A DNA stretch of 24,000 nt from Gammaproteobacteria bacterium (lineage in GTDB: Bacteria; Pseudomonadota; Gammaproteobacteria; Pseudomonadales; JADFDG01), in contig JADFDG010000006.1 in the NCBI GenBank assembly GCA_018262975.1, positions 121,137-145,136 of the forward strand. Direction: 5' to 3'. How positions within the stretch are numbered: position 1 is the first letter of the stretch; every line of letters begins with the position of its first letter. A program made the translations under genes and the position numbers. Positions 4,242-20,828 of this stretch are shown piece after piece. Below the pieces are notes generated by a model. It worked only from the letters and a program-made list of their open reading frames with translations. It searched no databases and had not been told where the DNA came from.

Positions 4242-4951
4242 ATTGGCGTTTGTTCGTGTTCGTTCAGGTGGCGTTCGATGTTCTGGCGGGCGGAACTGAC
4301 GTGGCGGCGCATCAGCATCTCGGCCAGGTCGCCGTCGCGCGCCTCGATGGCTTCGACGATGCGCAGGTGCTCGCCGAAGGCCTTCTGCGGGCGGTTGGCG
4401 TAGGCGCTGAACTGCTGGCGGTACATGCGCACCAGGTGGTACAGCTCGCCGATCAACAGGTCGGTGAGCGCCCGGTTGTGCGAGCCCTTGATGATCCGGT
4501 AGTGGAAGTCGAGGTCGCCTTCCTGCTGGAAGTAGGCAGTGTCGGCCTGCAGCGCCTCGTCGCGCTCGTGCTCGGCGAGCAGGGCCCGCAGACCGGCGAC
4601 CTCCTCCGGCGTCATGTGCATGGCCGCCAGGCGTGCCGCCATGCCCTCGAGGGCTTCGCGGACGTAATAGATCTCGATGAGCGCCTCGTGGGTCAACGAG
4701 GCGATGCGGATGCCGACGTGGGGGGTGCGTTCGACCAGCTTGCGGGATTCGAGCCGGCGGAGGGCCTCCCGCAGGGGACCCCGGCTGGTGCCGAAGCGCT
4801 CGGCCAGTTCGGTCTCCCCTACCCTTGAGCCCGCCGGAATGTCGCCACGGATAATGGCCGACTGCAGGGCCTCGAAGACCCGGTCGGCCGCCGTGCGTGC
4901 GGTGCTCTCGTCAGGATCGAACTGGGTGGTCACTGGCTGGATTGTCGACAA
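4238..4951 (-). CDS. GntR/FadR-family (FCD-type) transcriptional regulator of the prp operon (PA0797/PmiR-like position)
   Basis: Track ORF of 237 aa. Winged-HTH region: [34 protein letters not shown]. All-helical C-terminal ligand domain. It sits directly upstream of and co-directional with prpB. The start is uncertain: the track start is a TTG (4951) lying inside a 12-bp palindrome with no SD, and GTG 4933 is an alternative. Confidence 0.85.
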
Positions 4952-5032: not shown

Positions 5033-6835
5033 CTAGATAGGACTGCACACCGAGGCATTGTCCACGGTCACCTGCCCGTAATAGGTGGGCACACGCCGGG
5101 CAGCATCCGCCGCCGCATCGACCAGGTCGTTCTCGACGATGTTCTTCAAGACGCTACCCAGGTAGGCCTCGTCGTCGAACCACTCAACCCGGTAGGGACA
5201 GGGGTCATCTTCCGGCCGGCAACTCTTGCTACGCAACTCGCCACGAGCAACGTCGTACACCACCGAACCCAGCGCGTCGCGGCCCAACGCCGGCGTCCCC
5301 AGCAGCAGGCCATAATCCGGGTGAGCCGGCTCGTAGATGGCCAGGCGCAGCGTCATGTAGGGGGTTTCCGCGCCCTCGGCGCCATCGAGGAATACGTTAC
5401 CAACCTGCCCGATATAGAACTCCGGCGTACCATCACCGTCGCGCAACTCACCACCCACCACCTGCACGTCTGAGCAGTCGAAGTCGACGTCACTGACAAT
5501 GTCCCCGGACGCCAGCATGCGGAAGAACATCGGTCGCGGCGTTTGCGCAGCCAGATAGGTCGAACTGGTGCGCTGCGTGTCGGTCACGAGATCTCCATCG
5601 GGATAACCCTTGTAGATCACGCCCACCGTCCGCGGCAGGAAACCGGACGGCAACAGCGACAGGTCGATGTCCGGCGTATTGAGATCGCGGGGTGCCAGGT
5701 AGGCATCACCCGAGAACTCGTTGCCGTTGAAGGTGAACATGCCCACGTGATCCGAATCGATCACGTATGTCGGGGGTACCCGGGAATTGTTGTCCGGATA
5801 CAGGTCCAGCAAGTTGCCGAACAACCAGTCGTTGACCAGATTGCCCGACACCATCAACTGGTCTCCGCCGTTCAGGTCGAAGCGCAAACCGCTGGTGGCC
5901 ACGACGCCATGCTGCAGCGCGCCAGCCGCCGTGATGGCACTGTAATCAGCCAGCGTGCCGACGTTCACGATCTTGGTCGCCGGATCCGTCGACTGGTCGA
6001 TGATGGTGTAAACCGCCAGACCGGCCAGATGCCCGGTGCGGGACATGGCCATGCTCGTGGCACCACTGAACAACCGGGTCTGGGTAAGGTCGGAGTCGAT
6101 CATCGACGTAGCGGTCCGATAGATACCAGAACGCGCCCGCAGCAACGAAGCATCGGTCAACTCCGCTGCCGCCAGCACATCCAGTACGGTGCCACCGCGA
6201 CGCAGTTGCTGGCCAACAGGTAACTCGATCTCCTCTACCACGGCCTCGAGTTCAAAGGCGAAGACCGAGGGCGAGTCGTCCAGCGACAACAGGTTTGCAT
6301 ACGCTGCGAACGCCAGGTCCACCTCGTCGCTGATCACCAGGACGTCACGCCCCCCGGAAGGCGGTGCCTCCAGCGAAATCAGCAAATTGAAGGTGTTGGT
6401 CGTCCGTTTGTCCGTGCTGTCCACGGTCGTGCCATTGAGGGTTCCGGGTGTCACCGTGACGTAGTTACGCGAGTCCTCCAGCGAACCATCTGTGCCAAAG
6501 ATCGACAGATCCACTTCACCCAATTTCAGTTCGCCCGGATAGCCCACGTAGAACGACACCGTGGTGCCGCGCGGGCAAACAAACCGGCCGTCGCCATCGG
6601 TTTCACCGGAAATTGGCAGTTGTCCGGTTTCCGAGCACAAGTACGACAGGCCAGCCACGGGCCGGTCAAGGTAGAAGTAGCCCGCGATATTGGTGTCGTC
6701 ATCGGGGTCCAGGTCGTTGCCCCCGCCGTCGTTCACCGGCGCGCCGGAGATGCGCTCCTCGGGGGCAATATCACACCCGGCCAGTCCCGCCGAAAGCAGC
6801 ACAGCCACCAGCAGCGGCACTACACGAAACTTCAT
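5033..6835 (-). CDS. Large lipoprotein, function unknown (last gene of the locus; FilF-like position and size)
   Basis: Track ORF 5033..6943 trimmed to ATG 6835, with GAGG 6 nt upstream. Lipoprotein signal: MKFRVVPLLVAVLLSAGLAG|C. ~600 aa, acidic, with several Cys pairs (YLCSE/FVCPRG, FDCSD, SKSC..DPCPY, VCSPI). It starts 8 nt after the upstream gene's stop. I recognise no catalytic motif. Confidence 0.8.
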   Translation of the reverse strand: MKFRVVPLLVAVLLSAGLAGCDIAPEERISGAPVNDGGGNDLDPDDDTNIAGYFYLDRPVAGLSYLCSETGQLPISGETDGDGRFVCPRGTTVSFYVGYPGELKLGEVDLSIFGTDGSLEDSRNYVTVTPGTLNGTTVDSTDKRTTNTFNLLISLEAPPSGGRDVLVISDEVDLAFAAYANLLSLDDSPSVFAFELEAVVEEIELPVGQQLRRGGTVLDVLAAAELTDASLLRARSGIYRTATSMIDSDLTQTRLFSGATSMAMSRTGHLAGLAVYTIIDQSTDPATKIVNVGTLADYSAITAAGALQHGVVATSGLRFDLNGGDQLMVSGNLVNDWLFGNLLDLYPDNNSRVPPTYVIDSDHVGMFTFNGNEFSGDAYLAPRDLNTPDIDLSLLPSGFLPRTVGVIYKGYPDGDLVTDTQRTSSTYLAAQTPRPMFFRMLASGDIVSDVDFDCSDVQVVGGELRDGDGTPEFYIGQVGNVFLDGAEGAETPYMTLRLAIYEPAHPDYGLLLGTPALGRDALGSVVYDVARGELRSKSCRPEDDPCPYRVEWFDDEAYLGSVLKNIVENDLVDAAADAARRVPTYYGQVTVDNASVCSPI

Positions 6836-6843
6836 TTCTGGCC

Positions 6844-7761
6844 TCATTTCGCCTGCAGGAATTCCAATGTGACATGGCCGCCCACCGCACTGCCGGACGG
6901 CTGGCCGGGACGACAGGCAGCAGGCAACGACTTGCGCGCCCACTCGCCCTCCACCACGACCACGCCGGCATCGCGCCCGAGCACCGGGGGAACAGCAATC
7001 TCCGTACTCACCCTAGCGTAGGCGAACAAGGTCTCGGGTATGGATTCGGTCGCAATGTTGTAAACAACGGACATCACGTGCCCGGCGCCGTCGAGCAGGG
7101 CCACTACCACGTCCGGCGGAGGCCCGCGCCGCCCCAGGGCCTGGACTCTCAGGCGTACCGTACCCACCGGCAAGGGCAAACGGTAACCGGCATAGCGCCG
7201 CGATTCCTGGAGGGACTCGCCCAGCACCGGGAATGCCAGTTCCTCGCGCCGCTGCGCCCCGCCTCGAGCCAGCAGGTGCCCCAGCGACACACCGCCCGGG
7301 CAAGCCAGCAGCCTGGCCGAAACCTGCCTGGCAGGCGCTGCTGGCACCCCGGCACTGGCGATTCCACTGTCACCCATCCCCAGTTCCGAGGCAGTGACCA
7401 CCCCTACCCCACCATCGGCACGCGGGATGGTATAGAAGCGCTCGCGATTGCGCTGTTCGACCGACTGCTCGAACGCGTCGACATCAGTGAATTGCTCGCC
7501 GCCAAAAACAGTCTGGGTGGGTGGGGAATCGGGGGTTGGAGACGTGGCCCCCTCACCGGGAGAAGTGGCCGGAGCAGAAGACGTTGCGGGCATGGCACCG
7601 TCGCCGCGCGCCGCGGGGACAGGGACGTCGAGAACCATGCGATTGCCGGCGGCATCGACGAAGACGACGGTGCCCGCCTCGCCCTGCCCGGCACCCGGCG
7701 ATTGGCAGCCGGGCAGGAACAAGGGCAGCAAAAGGATCGTGGCAAGGATACGCAGGTTCAC
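6844..7761 (-). CDS. Lipoprotein with Pro/Ser/Thr-rich linker, function unknown (FilE-like position)
   Basis: Track ORF 6844..7857 starts inside REP units. The best start is GTG 7761: (M)NLRILATILLLPLFLPG|C, with a lipobox. The alternative is ATG 7788, inside the loop of a REP unit (MAPSLQNRAVNLRIL...). Linker: SSAPATSPGEGATSPTPDSPPTQ. No clear SD. Confidence 0.7.
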   Translation of the reverse strand: MNLRILATILLLPLFLPGCQSPGAGQGEAGTVVFVDAAGNRMVLDVPVPAARGDGAMPATSSAPATSPGEGATSPTPDSPPTQTVFGGEQFTDVDAFEQSVEQRNRERFYTIPRADGGVGVVTASELGMGDSGIASAGVPAAPARQVSARLLACPGGVSLGHLLARGGAQRREELAFPVLGESLQESRRYAGYRLPLPVGTVRLRVQALGRRGPPPDVVVALLDGAGHVMSVVYNIATESIPETLFAYARVSTEIAVPPVLGRDAGVVVVEGEWARKSLPAACRPGQPSGSAVGGHVTLEFLQAK

Positions 7762-7772
7762 GGCGCGGTTCT

Positions 7773-7871
7773 GCAGAGAGGGGGCCATGCCCCCGATGCT
7801 GTTCGTAGAGAGGGGGCCATGCCCCCGATTTGAATGGCGAAAGAGCATCGGGGGCATGGCCCCCTCTCTAC
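7773..7871. repeat. REP cluster C: three REP units inside the locus, between the FadL-like gene and the next lipoprotein gene
   Basis: Units are 7773-7796 (GCAG variant: GCAGAGAGGGGGCCATGCCCCCGA), 7805-7828 (GTAGAGAGGGGGCCATGCCCCCGA) and, inverted, 7848-7871 (TCGGGGGCATGGCCCCCTCTCTAC). They fill most of the 114-nt gap 7762-7875. Confidence 0.9.
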
Positions 7872-7875
7872 AGAG

Positions 7876-9558
7876 TCACCAGGTGGTGCGGTAGGCGAAG
7901 CCGAAGTACATGATCTCGGCTTCGGTCTTGATGTCCAGGCCGCCGTAGGGGTTGTAGACAACATTGTCCAGGCCAGAGCAGTTGGCGTTGCAGCTAGTGT
8001 CCGCCGGGATGCTGTCCTTCGAGTGTACATACGAGAACGTGACGTCAACCTGCGAATCGCGATCCCACTTGTAGCCCAGGCCCAGACCATAGAGCACTGC
8101 CTCGTTGATCGGTACCAGCGGGCTGCGCTTGTCGTCAGGAATGGCTGACGCGCGCGGCTCGTAACCCAGGCGCAGCGTAAGACGATCCGTGAAATCCCAT
8201 TCCAGGCCCATGCCCAGGCTCCAGACGCTTTCGTAGCCCAGCGGCAGGCTCATGGAACTCTGGGTGACGCCCGGCGCCAGCAACCGCGCCAGGCCCAGCG
8301 CCGCAACGCTGCGGTCAAACTTGACGTTGAAGGCACTCCACTCGCTGAAGTCAGTCCAGCCGAGATCCATGTTGACCTTCCAGCGCGGCAGGAAACGGTA
8401 CTTGATACCGGTCTGCAGGTGCGCCGGGTACGTCAATTTCATCGACAACAGGCCGGTCTCCTCCTTCGGCACGAAACTCGGCATGCCGAGTACCGCAAGC
8501 GCGATCGCCCCGGTCGGCGATCCGCCAATGGAATTCAGCAGGTCGCGGGTGGGGTCCTCATAGGTGATGGTGTACTTGCCCTTGAGGTTCATCTTCGCTT
8601 CGGACTGCCACACCAGGCCCCAGGCAAAATTGTCGCTGGGCTCCCACAGCACGCCGAGGTTGTAGGTCGGCGACATGCGCTGTTCCATCGTGAGATCCAT
8701 CTTGGCGAGGCTCTCGAACGGATCCAGGCCCTCCTCTGCACCGCAGGCACCGAAGAGGAAGATGTCCAGCACGATATTCGACTCGCCGCGGAACGGCGCG
8801 CAGATGTCCTCATCGAGTACCCGCGCAAAACCGAGCAACTCGTTGGGCGTACGGAAATCCGTCTGCAGGGAAATCGCCATGTATGACAGGCCCACCGAGC
8901 CACCGACCGACCACCGGTCGTTGATCTGCCAGCCGAGCGACGGTGACAGGTAGGTGACGCGCTCAAGCGCAACCCGCTCACCGAGGAAGTTGCCGGGGTC
9001 GTCCGGCGCGCGGTGGAAACCGGCGATCATCGGCGCGTAGATGCCGTTGGCGAAGGTGAACTTGGAGCCAGCAGGCTTGATCGAGATGGCAGGCAGCGGG
9101 CCACCACCAACCGGACCCGGCGGCAGATCCACAACCTCGTCGATCACCGGCACGTACAACGAAACACCCTGCACGCTGCTGCGCCCGGTCTTGAACTCAC
9201 GGCAGTAGTCCGCGCCATCGTCGGACGGATCCGCGCATACCACCGGGTCATCGGAGAACCCGAATACCTCATACCCAGGCGGCGCGGTGAACTCCGAGTT
9301 CAGGGCAAAATCGGCCGCCAGAAACTGCAGGTCAATCCTGCGCCCTTCAAGCTTGGCAAGTCCCGCCGGGTTGAAGTGGATAGCGCTGATGCCCGGCGGG
9401 TCCGCGGTCACCGCGTTACCCAGCGCCATCGCGCGCGGATCCATCGCAATGTTGGTTGCCAGTTGTGCAGTGGCTGCCTGCGACACCAACAGTGTCGAGA
9501 GCACAGCCCACCGCAGACGCCCCTGCAAATTGATCATGCTCGGCCCTGTCCTATGCAT
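7876..9558 (-). CDS. Outer-membrane transport protein of the FadL/OMPP1/TodX family, enlarged (~555 aa) (FilD-like position)
   Basis: Track ORF of 560 aa; the alternative start is ATG 9537 (MINLQGRLRWAVLSTLLVSQAATA|QL signal peptide). FadL-type N-terminal hatch motif: ALGNAVTADPPGISAIHFNPAGLAKL. Beta-strand-rich sequence ending with the aromatic OMP terminus FGFAYRTTW. Confidence 0.85.
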   Translation of the reverse strand: MHRTGPSMINLQGRLRWAVLSTLLVSQAATAQLATNIAMDPRAMALGNAVTADPPGISAIHFNPAGLAKLEGRRIDLQFLAADFALNSEFTAPPGYEVFGFSDDPVVCADPSDDGADYCREFKTGRSSVQGVSLYVPVIDEVVDLPPGPVGGGPLPAISIKPAGSKFTFANGIYAPMIAGFHRAPDDPGNFLGERVALERVTYLSPSLGWQINDRWSVGGSVGLSYMAISLQTDFRTPNELLGFARVLDEDICAPFRGESNIVLDIFLFGACGAEEGLDPFESLAKMDLTMEQRMSPTYNLGVLWEPSDNFAWGLVWQSEAKMNLKGKYTITYEDPTRDLLNSIGGSPTGAIALAVLGMPSFVPKEETGLLSMKLTYPAHLQTGIKYRFLPRWKVNMDLGWTDFSEWSAFNVKFDRSVAALGLARLLAPGVTQSSMSLPLGYESVWSLGMGLEWDFTDRLTLRLGYEPRASAIPDDKRSPLVPINEAVLYGLGLGYKWDRDSQVDVTFSYVHSKDSIPADTSCNANCSGLDNVVYNPYGGLDIKTEAEIMYFGFAYRTTW

Positions 9559-9582
9559 CTTCGCCGGTGCCCGTGCGGAAGA

Positions 9583-10653
9583 TCACTTCTTGAGGCCGGA
9601 AATGTCGATCGGCAGCGAAATGCCGATAGTGACGTCCGAGGCCTCTTCGGTCAGGCCAAACCCGAAACCGACGTTGACGATACGCTTGGGCGACATCCGG
9701 ATGCCTACCGACGTACTGAAGGAGGCAGAGGTCGAATCCTCGGAGCCGACAAAGTCCCCGTTGCTGAACAGGTACTCGCTCTGGAAGGCATAGCTCTGCT
9801 GGTAAGACGCACTGACCGACAGGTCGTAGGACAGCGCGTAGGCCATGCCCATCGAAAAGCTGATGGAATCCCCCGGATGGAATTCGGTCAGGACGCGATC
9901 ACCGCGCGCCTGGTCCAGGTCGGTGACATCAAAACCCATGGTGTAGCTGACACTACCGAAGACCACCGCCGGGTCGATCACCTTGCTGACGGAGGCACCA
10001 ACGGAGCCCGCGTAATAGCCCTTGCCGGAGGAGAGATCGGTATTCGGGTTGATCTTGTAAGGGCTGTCACCGGTGGCGGTCGATGCCGTGGCGAACAGGG
10101 TGGTGACCGGCGCGCCGCGCTTGAGTGCGAACGGCTGCCAACGCATGCCAAACGACACGTCGCCCAGCGCCGCGCCGGAAACATCCTTGGCAGAGTCGTA
10201 CTTGAACACCAGCGGCAGGCGCACGTTGGCAGTCAGGTTGTTCCAGATACCGTAGTCGAACGAGAACGAGTTGGAGAATGAATGCTGCGCATCCTGCTCG
10301 ATCAGGAAGCGACTGATGCTGCCGCTGTCATTGAAGGCGATGTCGATGCGGTCGTTGCGGAAGTAGGAGTAATCGACCGAGAAATCCAGCGCCATCTCGC
10401 CGGACTTGAGCAGCGAATACTGCTTTTCGGCAGCCTGGAATACTTCCTCGAGGTTCTTCTCCGCGGTGACGTCGTCTTCCTTGGCAGTGAGTGCCTCCCG
10501 GGCCACGTCAGCGGTCGACGCGGGAGCCGCCGGCGTAGCGGCCGCCGGCGGGACTTCAGACGTCGCAGCCGGCGCGTCCTCGGCATGGACCGCGGGCACC
10601 ATGACAGCCATGACAAAGGCGGTCATCCACGAGGTACGGGCAAATGTCAGCAT
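9583..10653 (-). CDS. Secreted protein with Ala/Pro-rich linker, short predicted helix/coiled coil and C-terminal beta-barrel-like domain (putative OMP; FilC-like position, FapF-like architecture)
   Basis: Signal peptide: MLTFARTSWMTAFVMAVMVPAVHA|ED. Linker: APAATSEVPPAAATPAAPAST. Helical segment: EDDVTAEKNLEEVFQAAEKQYSLLKSGE. About 250 aa of alternating-hydrophobicity strands follow (SFSNSFSFDYGIW, SISFSMGMAYALSYDLSVSASY, IVNVGFGFGL). The C-terminus (ISGLKK) lacks the usual terminal aromatic residue, so OMP status is inferred. Confidence 0.7.
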   Translation of the reverse strand: MLTFARTSWMTAFVMAVMVPAVHAEDAPAATSEVPPAAATPAAPASTADVAREALTAKEDDVTAEKNLEEVFQAAEKQYSLLKSGEMALDFSVDYSYFRNDRIDIAFNDSGSISRFLIEQDAQHSFSNSFSFDYGIWNNLTANVRLPLVFKYDSAKDVSGAALGDVSFGMRWQPFALKRGAPVTTLFATASTATGDSPYKINPNTDLSSGKGYYAGSVGASVSKVIDPAVVFGSVSYTMGFDVTDLDQARGDRVLTEFHPGDSISFSMGMAYALSYDLSVSASYQQSYAFQSEYLFSNGDFVGSEDSTSASFSTSVGIRMSPKRIVNVGFGFGLTEEASDVTIGISLPIDISGLKK

Positions 10654-10718
10654 CTCTACGCGTCCTTCTTGTTGTTCTGTTGCATCACGCCGTCAACGGG
10701 CACCCGGCACACCACCGC

Positions 10719-11528
10719 TCAGTGGTTGTAGTAGGTGCGCAACGGCGCGTTGATGATTTCCAGCTTGCCTTCGGCATTCTCGACATAGATCGGCACCAGC
10801 GAGCTCGCGCGGTCGGCTTCCACTTCGCGCCCCGGCAGGAACACGTCCTGGGTAGCGAAGGCCAGGTGGCGAATGGTGCTCTCTTCCACGTAACGCAAGT
10901 CGGAGTCGGCGATATCCAGTTCACGCTTCGGCTCGAAGCCGTTGGGGAACACGATGAACAGCACGTTGTCGAGCCAGACTTCCTCGAAGCGTTCGATCGG
11001 GAAGGAAATATTGCCGAGCGCCGGATCTGCCACGAATACGCGGCCGTCGCGGAAGCCCTTAACCACGACAAAATGCTTGAAGCCGCCATAACCGATCGGC
11101 GCGATCGCCGGGTGGTCAAGCACGACGAGATCCTTGGTGGTAGCACGGAAGCCGCCACTGGGGTGACCGAGCGCGGTCACCAGACGCTTCATGTCGAGCA
11201 ACGAAAAACCACGGCGTTCGACGATCTTTTCGGTTTCACCAAAGCGCAACAGACCCTCCATGATCTGCCGTTCCTGGAACTGGCGACCGAGGTAACCGTT
11301 GAGCAAGGTGGTAAGGGCCGCGGAACCACAACTGTAGTCATATGCCTGACGAACAATGCCATGGTATTTAACGACACTGTCGGGCTTCACAGCGACATTG
11401 CGCTCGGGAATATCGACAAGGCGACCCGGATGATCGTAATGCACCACGCCTTCCGGCTGGTCCTCGACCACCGCGATATTGTTGATCGCCACGTAAAGCA
11501 TGATGGCGCCTGCCAAGACGGCAAACAT
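10719..11528 (-). CDS. Stand-alone, N-terminally membrane-anchored peptidase C39-like cysteine peptidase (FilB-like position)
   Basis: Track ORF of 269 aa. N-terminal hydrophobic anchor: MFAVLAGAIMLYVAI. C39 motifs: QAYDYSCGSAALTTLL (catalytic Cys context), GFKHFVVVKG (His), VFVADPALG (Asp). No ABC-transporter domain is fused or adjacent. Confidence 0.8.
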   Translation of the reverse strand: MFAVLAGAIMLYVAINNIAVVEDQPEGVVHYDHPGRLVDIPERNVAVKPDSVVKYHGIVRQAYDYSCGSAALTTLLNGYLGRQFQERQIMEGLLRFGETEKIVERRGFSLLDMKRLVTALGHPSGGFRATTKDLVVLDHPAIAPIGYGGFKHFVVVKGFRDGRVFVADPALGNISFPIERFEEVWLDNVLFIVFPNGFEPKRELDIADSDLRYVEESTIRHLAFATQDVFLPGREVEADRASSLVPIYVENAEGKLEIINAPLRTYYNH

Positions 11529-11676
11529 CGAACCCCCGGCCGTGGGAGGCTGCCTGCCCGGCCGGGCAAAACAGCCAATTTCTTGTTATGACGCGCTAGG
11601 TTAGCGACGGCAAGCATGGCGCCGCAACCCGGCCTGTGTAGACTTTTGTAATGCCAGATGTCGGGCACCACAATGC

Positions 11677-11704
11677 AAAAAGCCCGGCCGAAGCCGGGCT
11701 TTTT
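11677..11704 (-). terminator. Rho-independent terminator immediately after the first FilA-like gene (bidirectional shape)
   Basis: The minus-strand RNA reads AAAAAGCCCGGC-UUCG-GCCGGGCUUUUUG. That is a 7-bp GC stem, a UUCG tetraloop and a U5 tail, ~16 nt after the TAA at 11721-11723. Confidence 0.8.
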
Positions 11705-11720
11705 GTGGAGCAGGCGCGAA

Positions 11721-12584
11721 TTACGGCTTGCCGGAGATCGTGATCGTGGTGCCGTTCAGGTTCAGGCCCAGGATAGACACGTCGCCGATGACATCCGTGC
11801 TGGTGCCGAGGTACGCATCGGTCAGCAGCATGTCGATACCGGTCGCGCTACCCAGCGAGCCGACTTCGACCACCAGACCAGCGCCGGTCACGTTGATACC
11901 AACCGCACCAACGGCCAGCTGCGTGGTGGCGTTGTTGTTGTCGGCGATAAGGACGTTGGCGGCACCCAGCGAACCGGTGCTGTTAACGTCGTTCAGCGCG
12001 AAGTTGGCGATGCTGATACCACCGGTGATGGTGGTGCTGAGCGCGATCATGTGCGAGGTGCTGGCCGTGGCGGCACCGCCGGCGTCCTGCAGCTCGTTGC
12101 CCAGCTGGATGTTCAGGGTGGTGGCGCCCAGGGTGATGGTGGCAGAGTTCATCACGGTGGCGTTGAAGGCGGAATCCCAGTTCGACGTAACGTCGTCACG
12201 GCCGGAGTTGCCCACCTGGATGGCACCGGTGGTGATCGAAGTGCCCGTCGGGATGGACACGGCAACGTTCAACGTGGCGGTACCTGCGGCACCGGCCACG
12301 GTCTGGTCACCGGCATCGATGTTGATGCCGATACCGCCGACGCCGGTTACCAGCGCAAAGTTGTCGATGCGGATGGCACCGTCAGATGCCGCACCGGCAA
12401 AGCCGCCACGATCGTGGACGATGATGTCACCGCTGATTCCGGCAACCGGGGTGTCGATCTGGATCTGGATACCGTCCTGACCAGTCACGCCGGACAGGGT
12501 GGCGTCCTCGAGGGACTCAAGCGAGAAGCCGGCAACCGGAACGGAAGCGATCACGGCAGCAAGCGCCAGTTTCTTGAAGGTCAT
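11721..12584 (-). CDS. Secreted Gly/Thr/Ala/Asp-rich repeat-like protein, putative fibre subunit, paralogue 1 (FilA-like; I believe these are annotated DUF6160)
   Basis: Track ORF of 287 aa. GGAGAA SD 6 nt upstream. Signal peptide: MTFKKLALAAVIASVPVAGFS|LESL. Conserved block ESLEDATLSGVTGQDGI. No Cys. C-terminus: LNGTTITISGKP. Codon choice is rich in GGT/GTT/CGT by eye. Confidence 0.85.
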   Translation of the reverse strand: MTFKKLALAAVIASVPVAGFSLESLEDATLSGVTGQDGIQIQIDTPVAGISGDIIVHDRGGFAGAASDGAIRIDNFALVTGVGGIGINIDAGDQTVAGAAGTATLNVAVSIPTGTSITTGAIQVGNSGRDDVTSNWDSAFNATVMNSATITLGATTLNIQLGNELQDAGGAATASTSHMIALSTTITGGISIANFALNDVNSTGSLGAANVLIADNNNATTQLAVGAVGINVTGAGLVVEVGSLGSATGIDMLLTDAYLGTSTDVIGDVSILGLNLNGTTITISGKP

Positions 12585-12660
12585 TGTTGTTCTCCGAGTT
12601 TTACGATTCTGATTATTGTGCGTCGCAACAGCCGGTCACCACAGGTGAGCACGTGTCCGG

Positions 12661-12688
12661 AATCTAACACACTGGATACATTCCGCAA
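12661..12688 (-). promoter_or_regulatory. Candidate sigma70 promoter for FilA-like paralogue 1
   Basis: The minus strand reads TTGCGG (12688-12683), a 16-nt spacer, then TAGATT (12666-12661), ~75 nt upstream of ATG 12584. This is pattern match only; other AT-rich candidates exist nearer the start. Confidence 0.25.
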
Positions 12689-12772
12689 CAGCCCTGCAAC
12701 AACCGTCCGTCGTCGACCACTGGACATCGCTGCACCCCCCGGAACTCTCCAGAGGGCGCAACGCTCACTTCA

Positions 12773-13654
12773 TCACTTACCGGATACGAGGATCGTGCCG
12801 GTATTGATCTGCAGGCCCGCCATCTCGATGTCACCCACGTAACCCGGGGTGGTGGTGCCGAGGTAGACACGCTCCATGCGCACGTCCAGGCCATTGACCG
12901 CATCACCCACCTGGTTCAGGGTCACCAGCAGGCCGTCGGCAGTGCCCACGGTGTCGTCCTGGATGTCCACGCCAACGTCCACGGTCAGGTTCTCCGAACC
13001 GACGGCAAGGCCGCCGTCCGTCACGGTGATGGTGCCGGCACCGATGGCGCCGCCGCTGTTGGCGTCACGCACCGCGCCACCGGTAATGACCAGACCGCCA
13101 CCAATCTGGGTGTCGATCGAAATCATGTGGCCCTGCGGTTCGCTGGCCAGCTGGATGTTGACGGCGGTCTGGCCCAGGGTGACCGTCGCGCTGTCAACCA
13201 CTGCCGTCGGGTTGATGTTGTTGTAGCCCCACGCCGCGGCTTCGTCGCGGTTGGAGTTGGCAACCGAGATGGAACCGGTCTGCAGCACGGTGCCGTTGGG
13301 AATCTCCACGAACACGTTCAGCGTCGGGCCACCGGCGCCGCTGCTGTCCACCGAGTCGTCGCCGGCATCGATGTCAACCGCGATGGCGTTGCCACCGGTG
13401 TCCAGCCCAAAGCCCTGGATGACAATCGCGCCATCAAAGGTGTGGGTCGCGGCGGCCGCCACGCTGGCCAGGCCCGTCAGGCCGTCGGTGTCGTGCACGA
13501 TGAGGTTACTGGTCACATCGAGGTCGAGCTCGATGTGAATACCATCCTGGCCGGTCACGCCGGACAGGATGCCGTCGTCCAGCGACTCGACGGCGTAGGC
13601 GCCACTGGAAACAGCGGCGATGACGCTGGCAAGCACAAGCTTCTTGAAGGTCAT
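12773..13654 (-). CDS. Secreted Gly/Thr/Ala/Asp-rich repeat-like protein, putative fibre subunit, paralogue 2 (FilA-like)
   Basis: Track ORF 12773..13861 trimmed to ATG 13654, with GGAGAAG 6 nt upstream. Signal peptide: MTFKKLVLASVIAAVSSGAYA|VESL. Same conserved block (ESLDDGILSGVTGQDGI) and same C-terminal ending (INTGTILVSGK) as paralogue 1. Confidence 0.85.
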   Translation of the reverse strand: MTFKKLVLASVIAAVSSGAYAVESLDDGILSGVTGQDGIHIELDLDVTSNLIVHDTDGLTGLASVAAAATHTFDGAIVIQGFGLDTGGNAIAVDIDAGDDSVDSSGAGGPTLNVFVEIPNGTVLQTGSISVANSNRDEAAAWGYNNINPTAVVDSATVTLGQTAVNIQLASEPQGHMISIDTQIGGGLVITGGAVRDANSGGAIGAGTITVTDGGLAVGSENLTVDVGVDIQDDTVGTADGLLVTLNQVGDAVNGLDVRMERVYLGTTTPGYVGDIEMAGLQINTGTILVSGK

Positions 13655-13775
13655 GTTGTTCTTCTCCGTAGTGTTGTATTGAACCGGCAGCCGCTGCGCA
13701 TCCGCGACAACACCCCGGTTCCGGGGTAACGCAACCAAACACGCCAAGGTACTCCCCAGCCCCTGGCGCCCTCCG

Positions 13776-16553
13776 CTACCGGACGCGTCGCCGCAAGCCG
13801 GCCAGCAGAACCCACAGCATCGACAGGAGCGGCAGCGCACCGCCTGCAATCCCGCCAACACCCTTGATCGTTACCGCAGACACGTCGGTCACGCGGACCG
13901 GCGTCGCTACCGGCTGTACCGGGCCTGCGGGCCCGTCCACGTCGGCGTAGGAAACTGCCGACGCCTGCACGCGCACCGCGGCACTGATATCCAGCTTGGG
14001 CGGCTCGTTCATCTGCGGGAATTCCACCAGCACGTCCATGGTCACCGATTGACCGGGCTGCAACACGGTATCCATGAACTGGCAGCTGGCAGAGCGCTGG
14101 TCCTCACCCCGAGTGCAATCGGTCGAGTCAGGGCCAAAGAAGTTGAGTACGCGCAAGGGCAGGTCCACCGCCAGCGCAACAGTTGGCCGCTGCAACACGG
14201 TGGTGCCGGTATTGGTGAATGTCACCTGCCCGGTCAACTGCTGGCCGGCACCACCGACTTCCGGCAGGTCGACCTGTAACCCCGCCCCGTAACTGGAGAT
14301 GTCGTCATCAATAATCGCGACCGATGCCGTCCATGGTGTGCCAAGCACCACCGACGGGGTCGAGGGATTTGCCAGGACCACCAGCAGCGACTCGCGCGCC
14401 TCAATGACCGTGTCGTTGTACACAGCGAGGTTGACCGGAATGGCGGCAACACCAGGCTCGAAGGTGAGTGTACGGGCCGCCGACTCGTAATCACTACCGG
14501 CCACGGCCGAGCCAGGCCCATCCTGCAACTCGAGCGTGAAAGTTCCGGCCGCGTTCGGCGAATCGAGTACGACCATGAAGCGCGCCTGCGCCCCGATGGC
14601 GGCCTCGCCAACCTCGTCCACCAGCCGTACAACACTGACCTGGTGGGCCACCGTACACCGCAGGCCATAGCCCAGCTGCGGCAACAATGGATGCGTCGTG
14701 GTGACGAGTACGCGCGCCTCGAACGCACCGAACTCGCCCGGCTTGCAGCGAAAATCGAGATTGAAGGCCCCTGCCCCGTTGACCACCGTCGCCGGCAAGG
14801 CATCGACCAGCTCGAAGCGATCAGGGTTTGCACCGTCAATCACCACCGAGGTGATTTCCCAGTCAGCACCGGTGGTGTTGTAAAAGCTGATCGGCCTGAC
14901 AGCGCCGGCGCCATAGGAGACCGTACCGAACTCGAGGTAATTGCCATAAGCAGGGATGGACACACCCGTCGCGGTTTGCGCAGTCAGGTCCTCGAGCTGG
15001 ACACGCACTGTACCGCCACTGGCACCGACCAGCAGCGGGTCCCCGGAGACCACGCGCACGTCGAACTCGCATACGCGGAACTTGCGCTGCAGGGAAACAC
15101 CCCCGAAAAGCAACTGCGGGTCGACCATCCAGATTTGCTGGGTTTGCCCGGCAGCGAACTCGAACACCTGGTCGGGATACGCGCAATCCTCGCCGATGCC
15201 ACCGGCAAATCCATCCCCGTTGTCGCGCAGGCTGAGCACCACCGTGGTGGTCCTGTCCGGGGCGAACTGCAGGCCGAGGTACACGGTGTGCGGGGAGGAC
15301 GTGGTGTTCAGCGGCAACGACATGGGCGACAGGCCGAACAACGGCTTGACCGTCGCACCCATCTGGCAGGCCTGCAAGTCCGCGAGCTTGCGGCCATGCT
15401 GGTCGCCTTGGGCGCACAGCGCACCCGGCACCGCCAGGTACGGGTAAAAAACTTCGATCAGCGGATGCACACCGGTGGCAAAGGCACCGTATACCGTCTG
15501 GTTACGATCATAGAGGAACGAGGTACCGGGAATGGGAATATCGCTGCGCACCTGCAACTCGGCCGCCGCCAGGTCCACGCAACCACCGGGATGCTCGGCG
15601 AAGGAATACGTTGCAGCCAGCGACGAACCGGGCGCGCACGCGAGGTCGGTGCCCGCCACATCCAGGCCGTTGTCGGCCAGCACGGCGCCGGAGAGGCTCA
15701 GCGCGCCGGCCAGGTAAACACCCCCACCACTGGCGGCCTGCGAGCGGCCGACGGTGGTGAACGCCAGGCTTGCGCTGGCACCGGCAGACACGTACAGCGA
15801 ACCACCCAGGTCCGCGACAGCATTGTTGGCCAACGTGGACGCGCGCGCATCCAGAGTGCAGTCATCACAATAGATACCGCCGCCATCGGAACCATTGCCC
15901 AGCGCCTGGGCGAATGCCACTTCCGAACGCACGAGTGACAGGGAACTGCCCGGCGCAGCGTAGATCGCCGCACCGCGCACGTTTTCCACCAGCGGGGGCG
16001 CCTTGGCCAGCACCACTGCAGACTCGTCAAGCGTCACCGTAGCGCCCGCACCGATGCGCAGGCCACCACCCTCGGTTTGCGTGCTGCCGTTCTGCAGGCC
16101 AACGCCGCGCAGGTTCAGGATCACCCCCGGGGCGACATCAAGGATACGGCCAAGCCCTTGCGCGTCGATGACGGCCCACGGCGCGCCGCCCCACAGCGTG
16201 AGATCATCAGCAACGTCCAGGTCACCGACGGCGGCGCTGCTCTCGTCAGAAAAGTCGCTGCCGATTTTCACCCGCGTCTGCGGCAGGATGATCGTATCGG
16301 CGCCATTGCCCCGGGCACACTCGATCGAACCGCCGTAGGAATCGGTGTTGGCGTTGACCAGTGCTTCGCGAAGACTGCAGCCATCGCCGATCACCTGCGC
16401 GTCGGTTGCAGTCGAGACCACGATGGTCTCTGCCCGAACGGACGTGGAGAGCAGAAGGACCGAGGAAAAAGCCAGGACGAGGCCACCCCCGCACCGAAGG
16501 CGCGCGGACGTCCCGAAATACGAACGGAATAAGGAGCCCAACGACACACCCAT
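13776..16553 (-). CDS. Large secreted adhesin-like protein: CSLREA-type N-terminus + right-handed beta-helix (PbH1-like) repeats, Ig-like 'choice-of-anchor'-type region, Calx-beta domain, C-terminal Gly-rich/TM/Arg-cluster sorting-signal-like tail
   Basis: Track ORF 13776..16679 trimmed to ATG 16553 (MGVSLGSLFRSYFGTSARLRCGGGLVLAFSSVLLLSTSVRA|ETIV). GDGCSLREALVNANTD. Repeated GGG(L/I/V)Y...L motifs (GGGIYCDDCTL, GGSLYVSAGASASL, GGGVYLAGALSL). Calx-beta signature: GSAVAGSDYESAARTLTFEPGVAAIPVNLAVYNDTVIEARESLLVVL. Tail: KGVGGIAGGALPLLSMLWVLLAGLRRRVR*. Confidence 0.85.
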   Translation of the reverse strand: MGVSLGSLFRSYFGTSARLRCGGGLVLAFSSVLLLSTSVRAETIVVSTATDAQVIGDGCSLREALVNANTDSYGGSIECARGNGADTIILPQTRVKIGSDFSDESSAAVGDLDVADDLTLWGGAPWAVIDAQGLGRILDVAPGVILNLRGVGLQNGSTQTEGGGLRIGAGATVTLDESAVVLAKAPPLVENVRGAAIYAAPGSSLSLVRSEVAFAQALGNGSDGGGIYCDDCTLDARASTLANNAVADLGGSLYVSAGASASLAFTTVGRSQAASGGGVYLAGALSLSGAVLADNGLDVAGTDLACAPGSSLAATYSFAEHPGGCVDLAAAELQVRSDIPIPGTSFLYDRNQTVYGAFATGVHPLIEVFYPYLAVPGALCAQGDQHGRKLADLQACQMGATVKPLFGLSPMSLPLNTTSSPHTVYLGLQFAPDRTTTVVLSLRDNGDGFAGGIGEDCAYPDQVFEFAAGQTQQIWMVDPQLLFGGVSLQRKFRVCEFDVRVVSGDPLLVGASGGTVRVQLEDLTAQTATGVSIPAYGNYLEFGTVSYGAGAVRPISFYNTTGADWEITSVVIDGANPDRFELVDALPATVVNGAGAFNLDFRCKPGEFGAFEARVLVTTTHPLLPQLGYGLRCTVAHQVSVVRLVDEVGEAAIGAQARFMVVLDSPNAAGTFTLELQDGPGSAVAGSDYESAARTLTFEPGVAAIPVNLAVYNDTVIEARESLLVVLANPSTPSVVLGTPWTASVAIIDDDISSYGAGLQVDLPEVGGAGQQLTGQVTFTNTGTTVLQRPTVALAVDLPLRVLNFFGPDSTDCTRGEDQRSASCQFMDTVLQPGQSVTMDVLVEFPQMNEPPKLDISAAVRVQASAVSYADVDGPAGPVQPVATPVRVTDVSAVTIKGVGGIAGGALPLLSMLWVLLAGLRRRVR

Positions 16554-16641
16554 AAAGTTATTATTCTCTTTTGTTGTCGCAGCAGGCCCGGCCAACCCCG
16601 GCCAGATGCCCCAGTGCAGGCTGCGCACCAAACGGGTCCTT

Positions 16642-16679
16642 GCCGGTTGATCATAACCGGCAGGCCCACCTTGCCCCAA
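16642..16679. promoter_or_regulatory. Divergent control region between the adhesin gene and pabB: inverted repeat plus promoter-like hexamers
   Basis: Inverted repeat GCCGGTT-N6-AACCGGC at 16642-16661. The minus strand reads TTGGGG (16679-16674), an 18-nt spacer, then TATGAT (16655-16650); the -10-like element lies inside the inverted repeat. An AT-rich patch (GAGAATAATAACTTT) lies just before ATG 16553. Confidence 0.3.
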
Positions 16680-16726
16680 CTGTCGCAGATACCGGCTATC
16701 CGATCAATCGCCCGGGAATCAACGAG

Positions 16727-17914
16727 ATGACTCGCCACCCCGCCCTACCAGCCACCGGCAATGCTCCGGCCGGGAGCGCCCGTGTCAGGATACGCACCCG
16801 CGCCCCGGGGGAACCTGGCGGACCAGCCTTAACCCTGGTGGCGGAACGACCGGCAGCGCGCTGGGAAGCCAGCGACGCGCGGGAACTGATCGGCATGCTC
16901 CCGGAAGCCCTGGCTGCCTGCCGGTCCAGTGGCACCGGTGGACTGCTGGCTGGATTGCTGACCTACCCTGACCGCGGGTCGCGTGGCACGTGTCACCCCA
17001 CCCTGCTGCTGTTTGACCAGCACCAGGAGGTTCCTGCCGGATCGGCCGACCCTGGCATCGAGGCCAGGATCCCGTTCCACCTGCAGGGCCCCTTTACCGC
17101 CAGCGGGGCGCCTGGCAGCTACGAGGCGGGCGTAGTACGCATCCAGCAGTACCTGGCCGCCGGAGATGCCTATCAGGTCAACCTCGCCCAGCGGTTCTCC
17201 ACCCGATGCGCGGGCGACCCCTTTACCGCCTGGCAAGCACTTGATCGTCGCTTCCGGCCACCCTTTGGCGCCTATCTGGATCTGGATCACTGCCAGGTGC
17301 TGTGCTTGTCGCCGGAATCGTTCCTCGAAGTAGCCGGTGAGCGGGTCGTCACCCGCCCGATCAAGGGAACGCGGCCCCGCGGAAGGGACGAGGTTGAAGA
17401 CCTGCGACTTGCCGACGACCTGGCGACGCACCCGAAGGACCGCGCGGAGAACCTGATGATCGTCGATCTTCTGCGCAACGATCTCGGCAAGGTCTGCGTA
17501 CCCGGCTCGGTGCGCACCCCGGCACTGTTCCGCGTGGAGAGCCACCCCAACGTGCACCACCTGGTAAGCGAGGTGGAGGGCCGGCTCGCCGACCCCACGG
17601 ACCTGGCCGGCCTGCTGGATGCCTGCTTTCCCGGTGGGTCCATCACCGGGGCACCCAAAAGACGCGCCATGGAGATCATCGACGAGCTGGAGCCGCACCC
17701 GCGCGAGGCGTATTGCGGCTCGGTGTTCTGGGCGACGGCGGATGGCCGCTTTGGCAGCAACATCACCATCCGCACGTTCGTGGTATCGGAGGGGGAAATT
17801 CGCGGCTGGGCCGGTGCGGGCATCGTGGCGGATTCCGTGCCGGCGGACGAGCAGCAGGAGTGCCTGCACAAGTTGCTGCCGATGATGCGGGAGCTGGAGG
17901 AGAAGTTCTTGTAG
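16727..17914 (+). CDS. pabB: Aminodeoxychorismate synthase component I (chorismate-binding enzyme family)
   Basis: Track ORF 16571..17914 trimmed to ATG 16727 (MTRHPALPATG...). Motifs: GDAYQVNLAQRFS, LSPESFLEV, RAENLMIVDLLRNDLG, FPGGSITGAPKRRAMEIIDELE. The N-terminal region is short and divergent (395 aa in total). Confidence 0.85.
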   Translation: MTRHPALPATGNAPAGSARVRIRTRAPGEPGGPALTLVAERPAARWEASDARELIGMLPEALAACRSSGTGGLLAGLLTYPDRGSRGTCHPTLLLFDQHQEVPAGSADPGIEARIPFHLQGPFTASGAPGSYEAGVVRIQQYLAAGDAYQVNLAQRFSTRCAGDPFTAWQALDRRFRPPFGAYLDLDHCQVLCLSPESFLEVAGERVVTRPIKGTRPRGRDEVEDLRLADDLATHPKDRAENLMIVDLLRNDLGKVCVPGSVRTPALFRVESHPNVHHLVSEVEGRLADPTDLAGLLDACFPGGSITGAPKRRAMEIIDELEPHPREAYCGSVFWATADGRFGSNITIRTFVVSEGEIRGWAGAGIVADSVPADEQQECLHKLLPMMRELEEKFL

Positions 17915-17932
17915 CGGAAGGGGTTGGGGGAG

Positions 17933-18021
17933 TCGGGGGCATGGCCCCCTCTCTACAAGAGCGGTCGGGGGCGTAGCCCCCTCGCTACGAAGAGCGGTCG
18001 GGGGCGTGGCCCCCTCGCCAC
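17933..18021. repeat. REP cluster D: three same-orientation REP units in tandem (32-33 nt period), progressively degenerate
   Basis: Units are 17933-17956 (TCGGGGGCATGGCCCCCTCTCTAC), 17965-17988 (TCGGGGGCGTAGCCCCCTCGCTAC) and 17998-18021 (TCGGGGGCGTGGCCCCCTCGCCAC). Linkers are AAGAGCGG and GAAGAGCGG; the array begins 19 nt after the pabB TAG. Confidence 0.9.
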
Positions 18022-18030
18022 GAAAAGCGC

Positions 18031-18059
18031 GGGGGGGGGGGGGGGGGGGGGGGGGGGGG
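18031..18059. repeat. Homopolymeric G29 tract (C29 on the minus strand), abutting the thrH stop codon
   Basis: 29 consecutive G counted directly (18031-18059). It is preceded by GAAAAGCGC and followed by TCA (complement of the thrH TGA at 18060-18062). It lies between the convergent genes pabB and thrH. Confidence 0.9.
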
Positions 18060-18677
18060 TCAGGGGGTGATGGCGCGGGTGCTGGATCTGGCGATTTCGT
18101 TGCGCAGGTCTGCGTAGGTGTGCACGGCCGGGAACTGCGGGAACTCGCGGATCACGTTTTCCGGCGCGTGGAACAGGATGCCTGCATCCGCCTCGGCGAG
18201 CATGGTGGTGTCGTTGTAGGAGTCGCCGGCGGCGATCACCCGGTAGTTGAGGGACTTGAACGCCTTCACCGACTGCCGCTTGGGATCCTTCTGGCGCAGG
18301 GTGTAATCGGTGATGAAGCCCTGCCCGTCCACCACCAGCTTGTGGCACAGCAGGGTCGGGTTGCCCAGCTGGCGCATCAGCGGCTTGGCGAACTCGTAGA
18401 AGGTGTCCGACAGGATCACCACCTGGAAGTTGTCACGCGCCCAGTCCATGAAGTCCACGGCACCCGGCAGCGGCCCCATGCGGTCGATCACCTGCTGGAT
18501 GTCCGGCAGGCCCAGCTTCTTCTCGGCCAGGATGCGCAGGCGCTGCTTCATGAGCACGTCGTAGTCCGGGATGTCACGGGTGGTCGCCCGCAGTTCCGGG
18601 ATGCCGGTGAGCTCCGCGAAGTTGATCCAGATTTCAGGAACGAGGACCCCTTCGAGGTCGAGGGCGAGAATTTCCAC
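18060..18677 (-). CDS. thrH: Phosphoserine phosphatase / homoserine phosphotransferase bifunctional protein ThrH (HAD superfamily)
   Basis: Track ORF 18060..18731 trimmed to GTG 18677, giving (M)EILALDLEGVLVPEIWI..., 205 aa. Long blocks match P. aeruginosa ThrH as I remember it: TRDIPDYDVLMKQRLRIL, VILSDTFYEF, TLLCHKL, LRQKDPKRQSV, RVIAAGDSYNDTTML, GILFHAPENVIREFPQFPAVHTY. Confidence 0.88.
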   Translation of the reverse strand: MEILALDLEGVLVPEIWINFAELTGIPELRATTRDIPDYDVLMKQRLRILAEKKLGLPDIQQVIDRMGPLPGAVDFMDWARDNFQVVILSDTFYEFAKPLMRQLGNPTLLCHKLVVDGQGFITDYTLRQKDPKRQSVKAFKSLNYRVIAAGDSYNDTTMLAEADAGILFHAPENVIREFPQFPAVHTYADLRNEIARSSTRAITP

Positions 18678-18865
18678 GGCACACCTGGCAGCAAGGAGGA
18701 AGGATCCGGGAGCGATCCCGGCGCGGCGCACACTTTAGCGGCGCCCCGCCACCCCTGCAATGCAGTATCCCGCACGCGGCATAAGACCAGACCAGAACGT
18801 TCTTTGAGGCCAACCCGGGCCGTCGCTAAACTGCCAGCCCTGCCTGACGGCGCACGGATACGCAC

Positions 18866-19597
18866 ATGCCCACCTACAGCGACGACCAGGTCAAGACCTG
18901 GGCCCTGGAACTCGACCTCAAGACCCCGCAGGAAATCCTGCGCCACGCGCTCGCCCACCACGACAACATCGCCCTGTCGTTCAGCGGTGCGGAGGACGTG
19001 GTACTGGTGGACATGGCGGTGAAGCTCCGCCCCGACGTGCGCGTGTTCTGCCTGGACACCGGCCGCCTGCACCGCGAGACCTACGAGTTCCTCGAGAAGG
19101 TCCGCGACCACTACGGCATTGCGCTCGAGGTGATGTTCCCGGATGCCGGTGCCGTCGAGCAACTCGTTCGCGAAAAGGGCCTGTTCAGCTTCTACCGCGA
19201 CGACCACAAGGAATGCTGCGGCATCCGCAAGGTGGAGCCTCTGCGCCGGAAGCTCGCAACCCTGGAGGCCTGGATCACCGGGCAGCGCAAGGACCAGAGC
19301 CCCGGCACGCGCGCCGTGATCCCGGTGGTACAGGTCGATGGCGCGTCCACCGGCGCTTCCGGGGCGCTGGTGAAATACAACCCGCTGGCCAACTGGCGCT
19401 CCATCGACGTGTGGCGCTACATCCGCGGCAACAACGTGCCCTACAACGCACTGCACGAGCGCGGCTTCGTGAGCATCGGCTGCGACCCCTGCACCCGCGC
19501 CATCCTGCCCGGCCAGCACGAGCGCGAAGGGCGCTGGTGGTGGGAGGATTCCACCAAGAAGGAATGCGGGCTGCACATCACCAACATCGAATCCTGA
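18866..19597 (+). CDS. cysH: Adenylyl-sulfate (APS)/PAPS reductase, thioredoxin-dependent, Fe-S type
   Basis: Track ORF of 243 aa. PAPS_reduct motifs: [42 protein letters not shown]. The CC...CxxC cysteines are typical of the [4Fe-4S] APS-reductase class. Confidence 0.9.
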
Positions 19598-19600
19598 GCG

Positions 19601-19622
19601 CGCGCCGGCGGATGCCGGCGCG
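19601..19622. terminator. GC-rich stem-loop between the convergent genes cysH and cysB (possible bidirectional terminator, no U-tract)
   Basis: CGCGCCGGC-GGAT-GCCGGCGCG gives a 9-bp perfect stem. It lies 4 nt after the cysH TGA and 11 nt from the cysB stop. Confidence 0.4.
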
Positions 19623-19632
19623 GCCCGCTCGT

Positions 19633-20828
<1,196 letters not shown>

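Follow-up and report, generated by a model that had tools for sequence, protein, structure and literature searches.

The closest described counterpart of the locus studied here is the Fil system of Acinetobacter. FilA has been reported as the Fil pilus subunit, a component of the surface fibres of Acinetobacter sp. Tol 5 (PMC11784438, citing Hori 2011), and in the Tol 5 proteome it is ~8-fold more abundant than FilC and ~50-fold more abundant than FilD (PMC11784438 Table S1). Besides work on FilF as a vaccine candidate, our literature search found almost nothing on this system, and neither a mechanism nor a structure. The other described system that bears on the locus is the Fap amyloid secretion of Pseudomonas. 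There, FapC is secreted only if the periplasmic C39 peptidase FapD has its active-site cysteine, and the target of this peptidase was left open (PMC5557850); the same literature search found no later paper defining a FapD substrate. Here, we analyzed a 24,000-nt stretch of a Gammaproteobacteria bacterium (contig JADFDG010000006.1, positions 121,137 to 145,136; hereafter the window), with the focus on two tandem genes, gene B (293 amino acids (aa), 12773..13654) and gene A (287 aa, 11721..12584). All features of the Fil cluster given below lie on the minus strand. The two proteins are very probably FilA-family pilus subunits encoded in a Fil operon. Our explanation as a whole, to which we assign a probability of roughly 0.6, is that they represent two FilA subunit types of a Fil pilus and would be processed by the C39 peptidase FilB, with the cleavage as its weakest link. 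A and B are distant members of FilA/DUF6160, and thus belong to a system that is already known and named but barely characterised, not to a new kind of system.

The NCBIfam model FilA (NF050077) matches both proteins over their full length, A with an E of 7.3e-51 (173 bits) and B with an E of 1.5e-57 (195 bits), the curated cut-off being 220 bits and tuned on Acinetobacter. Pfam DUF6160 also matches both, at 38.3 bits (A) and 40.6 bits (B), above its gathering score of 27. Each protein shows the feature set of the FilA family: a signal peptide comes first, the L..DD..L...TGQDG block follows, and the C-terminal strand ends in G-[H/K/R]. Together with the reported role of FilA in the Tol 5 pilus (PMC11784438), this family membership supports the view of the first-pass annotation, which was made from the sequence alone, that the pair encodes secreted fibre subunits.

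The same annotation had described the genes as two cysteine-free paralogues, and the open reading frame (ORF) calls and a pairwise BLASTP alignment (133 identities in 311 columns, 43%; E 5e-60) bear this out; every shared island that it quoted is present in the alignments. Its estimate that the two proteins are elsewhere roughly a third identical was somewhat low: global alignment pairs 268 residues, of which 133 (50%) are identical, with 67% identity over residues 1–39 and 47% over the remainder. The common ...SGK ending holds for B only, whereas A ends in ...ISGKP with one extra Pro after the Lys. The ATG of gene B sits within a longer ORF that starts with GTG; the MTFKKL start is the one used by all 48 aligned homologues, and a GGAGAA ribosome-binding site is located 5’ of each gene. 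The composition is as first described. Neither protein contains Cys, which makes up 1.2% of the neighbouring proteins, basic residues are few (three Lys in each protein, two of them in the signal peptide and one at the C-terminus, and three to four Arg), and G, T, A, V, I, D and N account for 69–74% of the residues. Both proteins are acidic and unusually hydrophobic, with a grand average of hydropathy (GRAVY) of +0.25 to +0.44 for the mature chains.

Aligning the two paralogues with each other and with their homologues, which had been proposed as a check, revealed the conserved N-terminal block and the C-terminal strand in 48 homologues. The mean frequency of the top residue is 0.79 at residues 22–39 and 0.56 in the body, and a second internal island at about residues 157–178 (TLG..LNIQLGNEPQG.MI) is conserved like the N-terminal block (0.81); the conservation of the shared parts is far beyond chance. 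At identical residues of A and B, codon identity is 58% in the N-terminus and 62% elsewhere, which rules out recent gene conversion as the source of the common N-terminus; since codon identity is no higher there, the shared head is due to selection. At the other end, the family C-terminus consists of an alternating hydrophobic strand followed by G and then His (63 sequences), Lys (30) or Arg (12) at or adjoining the very end. This distribution of C-terminal residues rules out a Gln-Lys isopeptide cross-link, made head to tail in a transglutaminase-like reaction by the papain-fold FilB.

A word-indexed search returned 67 FilA homologues. Searching 1.84 billion cluster representatives exhaustively with the profile yielded 793 with E ≤ 1e-3, 204 of them with E ≤ 1e-30. 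From a scan of species-representative genomes, in which the closest relative is just 52% identical, 121 relatives were confirmed and 80 loci (L001–L080) were fetched for locus comparison. The fetched loci belong only to Alcanivoracaceae, Moraxellaceae (Acinetobacter, Alkanindiges and Aquirhabdus) and unclassified metagenome-assembled genomes of Pseudomonadota or Pseudomonadales; oil or hydrocarbon sample names are common among the carriers. The order filA (one to four copies)-filB-filC-filD is kept in every fetched locus that is long enough to display it, and the five closest loci (L001–L005) match the whole layout of the window: a 967-aa upstream protein, one B-type filA, one to three A-type filA, filB, filC, filD and two lipoprotein genes.

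In a neighbour-joining tree, B of the window joins the first filA copies of these five loci and A joins their later copies (copies 2–4). The grouping indicates that the filA duplication is older than these lineages and that the second type was duplicated again, and we propose from the sequences that A and B are two old subunit types that share their signals for export and assembly. A lone filA is found in the majority of Acinetobacter and Alcanivorax loci; since one copy suffices there, a second type is not essential to the system. It is plausible from the paralogue pattern that the two types have two roles, a division into major subunit and nucleator included, although the single filA of most related loci and the same head and tail retained by both window copies weigh against that particular division.

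The N-terminal block directly follows a Sec-type signal peptide. In B, residues 1–21 (MTFKKLVLASVIAAVSSGAYA; 13592..13654) comprise a KK n-region, a hydrophobic core and an AxA-type site at which cleavage is predicted; residues 1–21 of A (12522..12584) have the same layout, and small residues at −1 and −3 of the predicted signal-peptidase site are found family-wide. Next comes a 15-residue candidate propeptide, residues 22–36, which in B (VESLDDGILSGVTGQ; 13547..13591) is followed by an invariant DG and which in A (LESLEDATLSGVTGQ; 12477..12521) has the same conserved register. G35, Q36, D37 and G38 are invariant in the 48 homologues, and [ST]GQ[DN]G occurs in 104 of the 110 FilA-like ORFs of the fetched loci, the other six having TGRDG (two), TGQEG (two), NGQDG (one) or a sequence that ends before the motif (one). 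Within the fetched loci the motif is restricted to FilA-like proteins, very divergent extra copies included.

To describe the block at residue level, 95 unique FilA-like sequences were anchored gap-free on the block Gln, numbered −1. The consensus reads A/G at −18, A/S at −16 (the signal-peptidase site), M/L/V at −15, Q/E at −14, M/L at −12 (92 of 95), D/E at −11, D at −10 (93 of 95), L at −7 (91 of 95), T/V at −4 (85 of 95), T at −3, G at −2 and Q at −1, and continues past the site with D at +1, G at +2, I/L/V at +3 and +5 and I/L at +7. The Gly at −2 is present in all scanned FilA-like ORFs in which the motif is visible. From the predicted signal-peptidase cut to GQ|DG the spacing is fixed at exactly 15 residues. 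In an AlphaFold2 (AF2) model of full-length B, which was run with the 48-sequence alignment, the block forms a low-confidence helix (residues 27–37) apart from the β core.

The gene downstream of the pair encodes the candidate processing enzyme. The filB-like gene (10719..11528) matches NF050078 (E 9e-87), FapD (E 2e-29) and Pfam Peptidase_C39 (60.5 bits), and its product is a stand-alone 269-aa protein with PDB matches to the C39 domains of LahT150 (6mpz) and PCAT1. Q61, C67, H152 and D168 are each at least 97% conserved in 73 homologues; as judged from its sequence, FilB, a C39 peptidase related to FapD, has kept the whole catalytic Gln/Cys/His/Asp set. It begins with a conserved hydrophobic segment (MFAVLAGAIMLYVA...), a putative anchor without a charged n-region. 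Past the C39 domain, FilB has a conserved C-terminal extension of ~70 residues (L204, D210, R212, D239, R264 and Y266).

For the double-glycine C39 protease LahT150, the last 13 residues of the leader suffice, Glu-8 and Glu-5 are dispensable, and a V-4T mutant is still cleaved (PMC6363468). The FilA block fits the recognition-helix register of this enzyme at −12, −7, −4 and −2. The first-pass annotation had suggested the block as a recognition or processing site for the adjacent C39-like peptidase but had been unable to align it with a double-glycine leader. Such an alignment is in fact possible, since the block aligns in register at the four positions above and is mismatched solely at −1 and at −8, where the dispensable Glu is absent. 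The suggestion itself is strengthened by this register and by the fixed 15-residue spacing, and is weakened by the Gln at −1. On balance, we regard cleavage of FilA by FilB at the GQ|DG block as a tentative assignment, somewhat short of even odds.

A mechanism can be outlined from these elements. FilA would cross the inner membrane via Sec and be cut by signal peptidase I after residue 21, leaving a 15-residue acidic amphipathic propeptide of the form [MLV][QE]x[ML][DE]DxxL[SG]x[TV]TGQ. The membrane-anchored, periplasmic FilB would then grip the propeptide in the manner of double-glycine C39 proteases, through the knobs at −12, −7 and −4 together with the Gly at −2, and cut at or beside GQ|DG. 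Largely unfolded FilA would exit via the FapF-like FilC pore, a function that the homology of FilC to FapF suggests, and would fold outside the cell as an elongated, all-β, acidic and very hydrophobic unit. Polymerisation would be non-covalent, with two conserved strands as the likely contacts, the one at the new N-terminus (DG-I-x-I-x-L) and the final one (T-I-x-I-S-G-[K/H/R]-COOH), while the FadL/PorV-like FilD and the lipoproteins might, speculatively, serve as surface assembly or anchoring factors. Of these steps, a dependence of FilA export on FilB and FilC is likely, and clearly more so than the cleavage.

Several points weigh against this reading. First, every NCBIfam Fil match in the window lies below its curated cut-off, and orthology to the Acinetobacter Fil system therefore rests on synteny and E-values. 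Second, the residue at −1 is Gln (Arg in two homologues), unlike the Gly, Ala or Ser of known C39 substrates, the residue at −4 is mostly Thr in Acinetobacter, and the −15/−12/−7/−4 pattern is expected of any amphipathic helix. Third, the periplasmic location of FilB is deduced from its hydrophobic N-terminus, which lacks a charged n-region. Fourth, the substrates suspected for FapD are FapE or FapF and not the fibre subunit (PMC5557850). Finally, the literature search found neither an experiment nor mass-spectrometry data that show where any mature FilA begins, and the supplement of the Tol 5 proteome (PMC11784438) gives values per protein only, without N-terminal peptides.

Some of these points lend weight to the main rival, the other alternatives being lesser ones. 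Here the block would stay on the protein as an outer-membrane targeting signal, comparable to the first 22 residues of mature CsgA in curli, and would be read by FilC or FilD in the periplasm; the substrate of FilB would instead be part of the machinery, for instance the FilE-like protein or the linker of FilC. For FapD, Rouse et al. considered FapE or FapF the more likely targets and saw peptides over the whole of FapC (PMC5557850), the N-terminal linker of FilC is Pro/Ala-rich, and the Gln at −1 is atypical for a C39 site. If the signal were uncleaved, however, it would be by coincidence that the block matches the register of the C39 recognition helix and has an invariant Gly at −2. The fixed 15-residue distance to the signal-peptidase site also suits a short propeptide. 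We consider this rival unlikely, though worth keeping in mind beside the processing of FilA by FilB.

The predicted structures bear on the remaining alternatives. The AF2 model of full-length B has a predicted local distance difference test (pLDDT) score of 78.6 and a predicted template modeling (pTM) score of 0.68, and that of A residues 37–287, which omits the block, has a pLDDT of 84.2 and a pTM of 0.75. Structure prediction of the monomer, another check that had been proposed, thus yielded a confident single-domain all-β fold: after the N-terminal region, both models consist of many strands of 8–12 residues joined by turns of 2–5 residues. Foldseek searches of both models against the PDB gave nothing significant (best E 0.2, template modeling (TM) score ≤ 0.27), a search of one model against BFVD gave nothing significant either, and the FilA profile had no match at E ≤ 1 among PDB sequences, so that, as far as the models go, the FilA fold appears to be without a solved relative. 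The matches that Foldseek ranked first for the two models are weak and belong to lipid binders of the TULIP type (Der f 7, beta-carotene-binding protein, Takeout, JHBP and the Vps13 N-terminus), not to solenoids; at TM ≤ 0.27, they were taken as local sheet similarity only.

In a further alternative, the block would be a structural N-terminal extension that stays unprocessed and docks on the C-terminal strand of the neighbouring subunit, head to tail or in a donor-strand-like manner. Such docking would account for the conservation of both head and tail, and the basic C-terminal residue (H/K/R) could pair with the acidic D27 or D37. The models do not favour it, as the block is a detached helix of low confidence and the core is modeled better without it, and docking would leave no role for the universally linked C39 peptidase. 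We judge it improbable, at about half the weight of an uncleaved signal.

The first-pass annotation had also read the composition as that of a β-solenoid or stacked-strand fibre, and had taken the two paralogues as a sign of major plus minor or nucleator roles, in analogy to CsgA/CsgB and FapC/FapB. Machinery homologous to FapD and FapF, the two old paralogue clades and the abundance of G, T, A, V, I, D and N would be in keeping with such a solenoid or cross-β amyloid. An hhalign self-comparison, however, detected no internal repeats (best off-diagonal probability 0.3%), the Q+N content is 9–10% in both proteins, and neither FapC/FapB, the Fap subunit families, nor CsgA matched A or B at E ≤ 0.01. 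Because repeats are lacking, Q+N is low, the long strands of the confident single-domain models are hairpin-spaced and Foldseek returned no solenoid, the solenoid or amyloid-repeat reading is unsupported, and with a single filA in most related loci we consider it very unlikely. The comparison with Fap made in that annotation thus stands for the machinery (FapD E 2e-29; FapF E 2e-18, and PDB 5o67 E 8e-12) but not for the subunits. Least probable of all is that FilA is a secreted or surface carrier that passes alkanes or lipids to the FadL-type FilD and no fibre subunit: the TULIP-type matches, the high GRAVY, the concentration of the loci in hydrocarbon degraders and the homology of FilD to FadL point that way, but all fold matches are non-significant (E > 0.2, TM ≤ 0.27) and FilA is reported as a highly abundant protein of Tol 5 surface fibres (PMC11784438).

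Transcription signals in the window relate to the amounts of subunit and machinery. An intrinsic terminator (A-tract, GCCCGGC-UUCG-GCCGGGC, U5; 11677..11704) is located right after gene A and precedes filB. It was missed by the automatic scan, found on reading the sequence and then confirmed by folding: the segment 11665–11722 folds at −32.5 kcal/mol (z −5.3), and 0 of 200 shuffles were equally stable. In the proposed mechanism, this strong terminator after the second filA would hold the expression of the subunits well above that of the machinery, and it fits a high subunit-to-machinery expression ratio. The intergenic RNA between B and A (12640–12775) also folds stably (−58.6 kcal/mol, z −3.3), with a long GC-rich hairpin that lacks a U-tract as part of the fold, and a sigma-70-like promoter match (12639–12612) lies ahead of gene A; these two elements may reflect separate or processed transcripts.

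Downstream of filB, the operon continues with two outer-membrane proteins and two lipoproteins. The filC-like gene (9583..10653) encodes a FapF-related outer-membrane barrel (NF050079 E 9e-113; FapF NF058560 E 1.9e-18; PDB FapF 5o67 E 7.9e-12). Since their scores are far below the equivalog cut-offs, FilB and FilC are regarded as homologues, not orthologues, of FapD and FapF. The filD-like gene (7876..9558) encodes an outer-membrane protein of the FadL/OmpP1 family (NF050080 E 5e-238; Pfam Toluene_X 229 bits). No other protein of the operon is as conserved as FilD, whose N-terminus matches PorV/PorQ (E 2.4e-9). PorV is a cargo shuttle of the type IX secretion system, and the PorV/PorQ-like N-terminus therefore suggests a cargo-holding role for FilD over lipid uptake. 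The lipoprotein gene in the filE position (6844..7857; start uncertain, 7857 or 7788; lipobox LPGCQS), placed as is Acinetobacter FilE, is kept in L001–L005 and is related to that protein weakly (pairwise E 0.026). The filF-like lipoprotein gene (5033..6838; MKFRV...LAGCD) is likewise conserved in L001–L005; it matches FilF NF050081 weakly (E 0.0056), and its N-terminal domain is 37% identical to A. gerneri FilF over 63 aa (E 2e-5).

On the other side, 5’ of the filA pair, lies a gene for a 967-aa surface protein (13776..16679). Its product has an N-terminal CSLREA-like motif (18.2 bits against a cut-off of 25), carries choice-of-anchor D as well as Calx-beta domains, and ends in a tail resembling GlyGly-CTERM (GGALPLLSMLWVLLAGLRRRVR; 13.5 bits against a cut-off of 15.5). 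From these features it looks like a rhombosortase-type surface protein, and its link to the Fil system is uncertain; among the 80 fetched loci, it precedes filA in the five closest only. The flanks of the cluster are housekeeping genes, with prpC, prpB and a GntR-family regulator on one side and pabB, thrH and cysB on the other (1927–4951 and 16571–20823), and neither signs of mobile elements nor a GC deviation were seen in the cluster itself (~5033–16679).

Two variations of the locus were observed in other lineages. Moraxellaceae loci carry very divergent extra FilA-like genes with the N-terminal TGQDG block intact, namely in L021 (11847–12887), L022 (11885–12910), L023 (11904–12917), L037 (11859–12857), L044 (12012–12860), L058 (11020–12021) and L062 (3067–3864). 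Their C-termini, as seen in L021–L023, are RGL, KGM or RGM in place of G-[H/K/R], and the proteins are candidate tip or anchor subunits. In several Alcanivorax loci, ~2 kb separate filA and filB (L011, with gaps also in L008, L010, L012, L015, L017, L019 and L049). The gap in L011 (10958–12874) encodes a 638-aa protein, read from its translation as TPR repeats and a sulfotransferase-like P-loop (LPRSGSTLLEQ), which hints at a subunit modification in that lineage.

The target of FapD-type peptidases has been an open question since 2017, and the invariant leader-like block of FilA is a concrete candidate site. With odds somewhat below even, a FapD-type C39 peptidase of the periplasm may here have its first identified substrate, FilA; removal of the Gly-Gln propeptide by FilB would license FapF-like export and head-to-tail polymerisation. 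If this were true, Fil would represent a protease-primed class of pili in Gammaproteobacteria and would be a pointer to what FapD recognises in Fap. Since the family is concentrated in hydrocarbon-degrading, surface-adhering Gammaproteobacteria (Alcanivorax, Alkanindiges and Acinetobacter), the very hydrophobic subunit may matter for attachment to oil and abiotic surfaces.

Among known systems, neither curli (CsgA/CsgB, CsgG/E/F) nor chaperone-usher families (PapD-like, PapC-like) had matches among the cluster proteins, and the subunits lack the five-fold imperfect repeats of curli. The subunits of Bacteroidota type V pili (FimA/Mfa1) are lipoproteins that gingipains process; loss of an N-terminal segment to a dedicated protease is what allows them to polymerise via terminal strands. 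FilA resembles them in concept only, with no relationship found in sequence or fold. The double-glycine leaders of PCAT/AMS C39 domains (LahT150, PDB 6MPZ) share with the FilA block the hydrophobic residues at −12, −7 and −4, the Gly at −2, a predicted short helix and a unit of 13–15 residues, and differ from it in that FilA has Gln at −1, a block placed after a Sec signal, a proposed cut in the periplasm and a cargo of 250 residues; family scans of the cluster proteins found no ABC transporter. The Acinetobacter Fil system (FilA–FilF, NF050077–NF050081) has the same filA-filB-filC-filD order followed by two lipoprotein genes, and its FilA has the same TGQDG block and G-[H/K/R] C-terminus, in line with the full-length profile matches of the window proteins. 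Compared with it, the window has FilAs of just ~30% identity, two filA types in tandem rather than one, barely recognisable FilE and FilF counterparts and the extra 967-aa CSLREA/Calx-beta protein. Pseudomonas Fap has a homologous periplasmic-type C39 peptidase and a FapF-family barrel, and Sec entry and duplicated subunit genes are found in both systems. FapA and FapE homologues were not detected in the Fil cluster of the window, Fil adds a FadL/PorV-like barrel and lipoproteins, and FilA is unlike FapC/FapB in having neither imperfect repeats nor Q/N richness. The Fil system thus has its C39 peptidase and its FapF-type pore in common with the amyloid secretion of Pseudomonas, but exports a quite different, non-amyloid-looking cargo.

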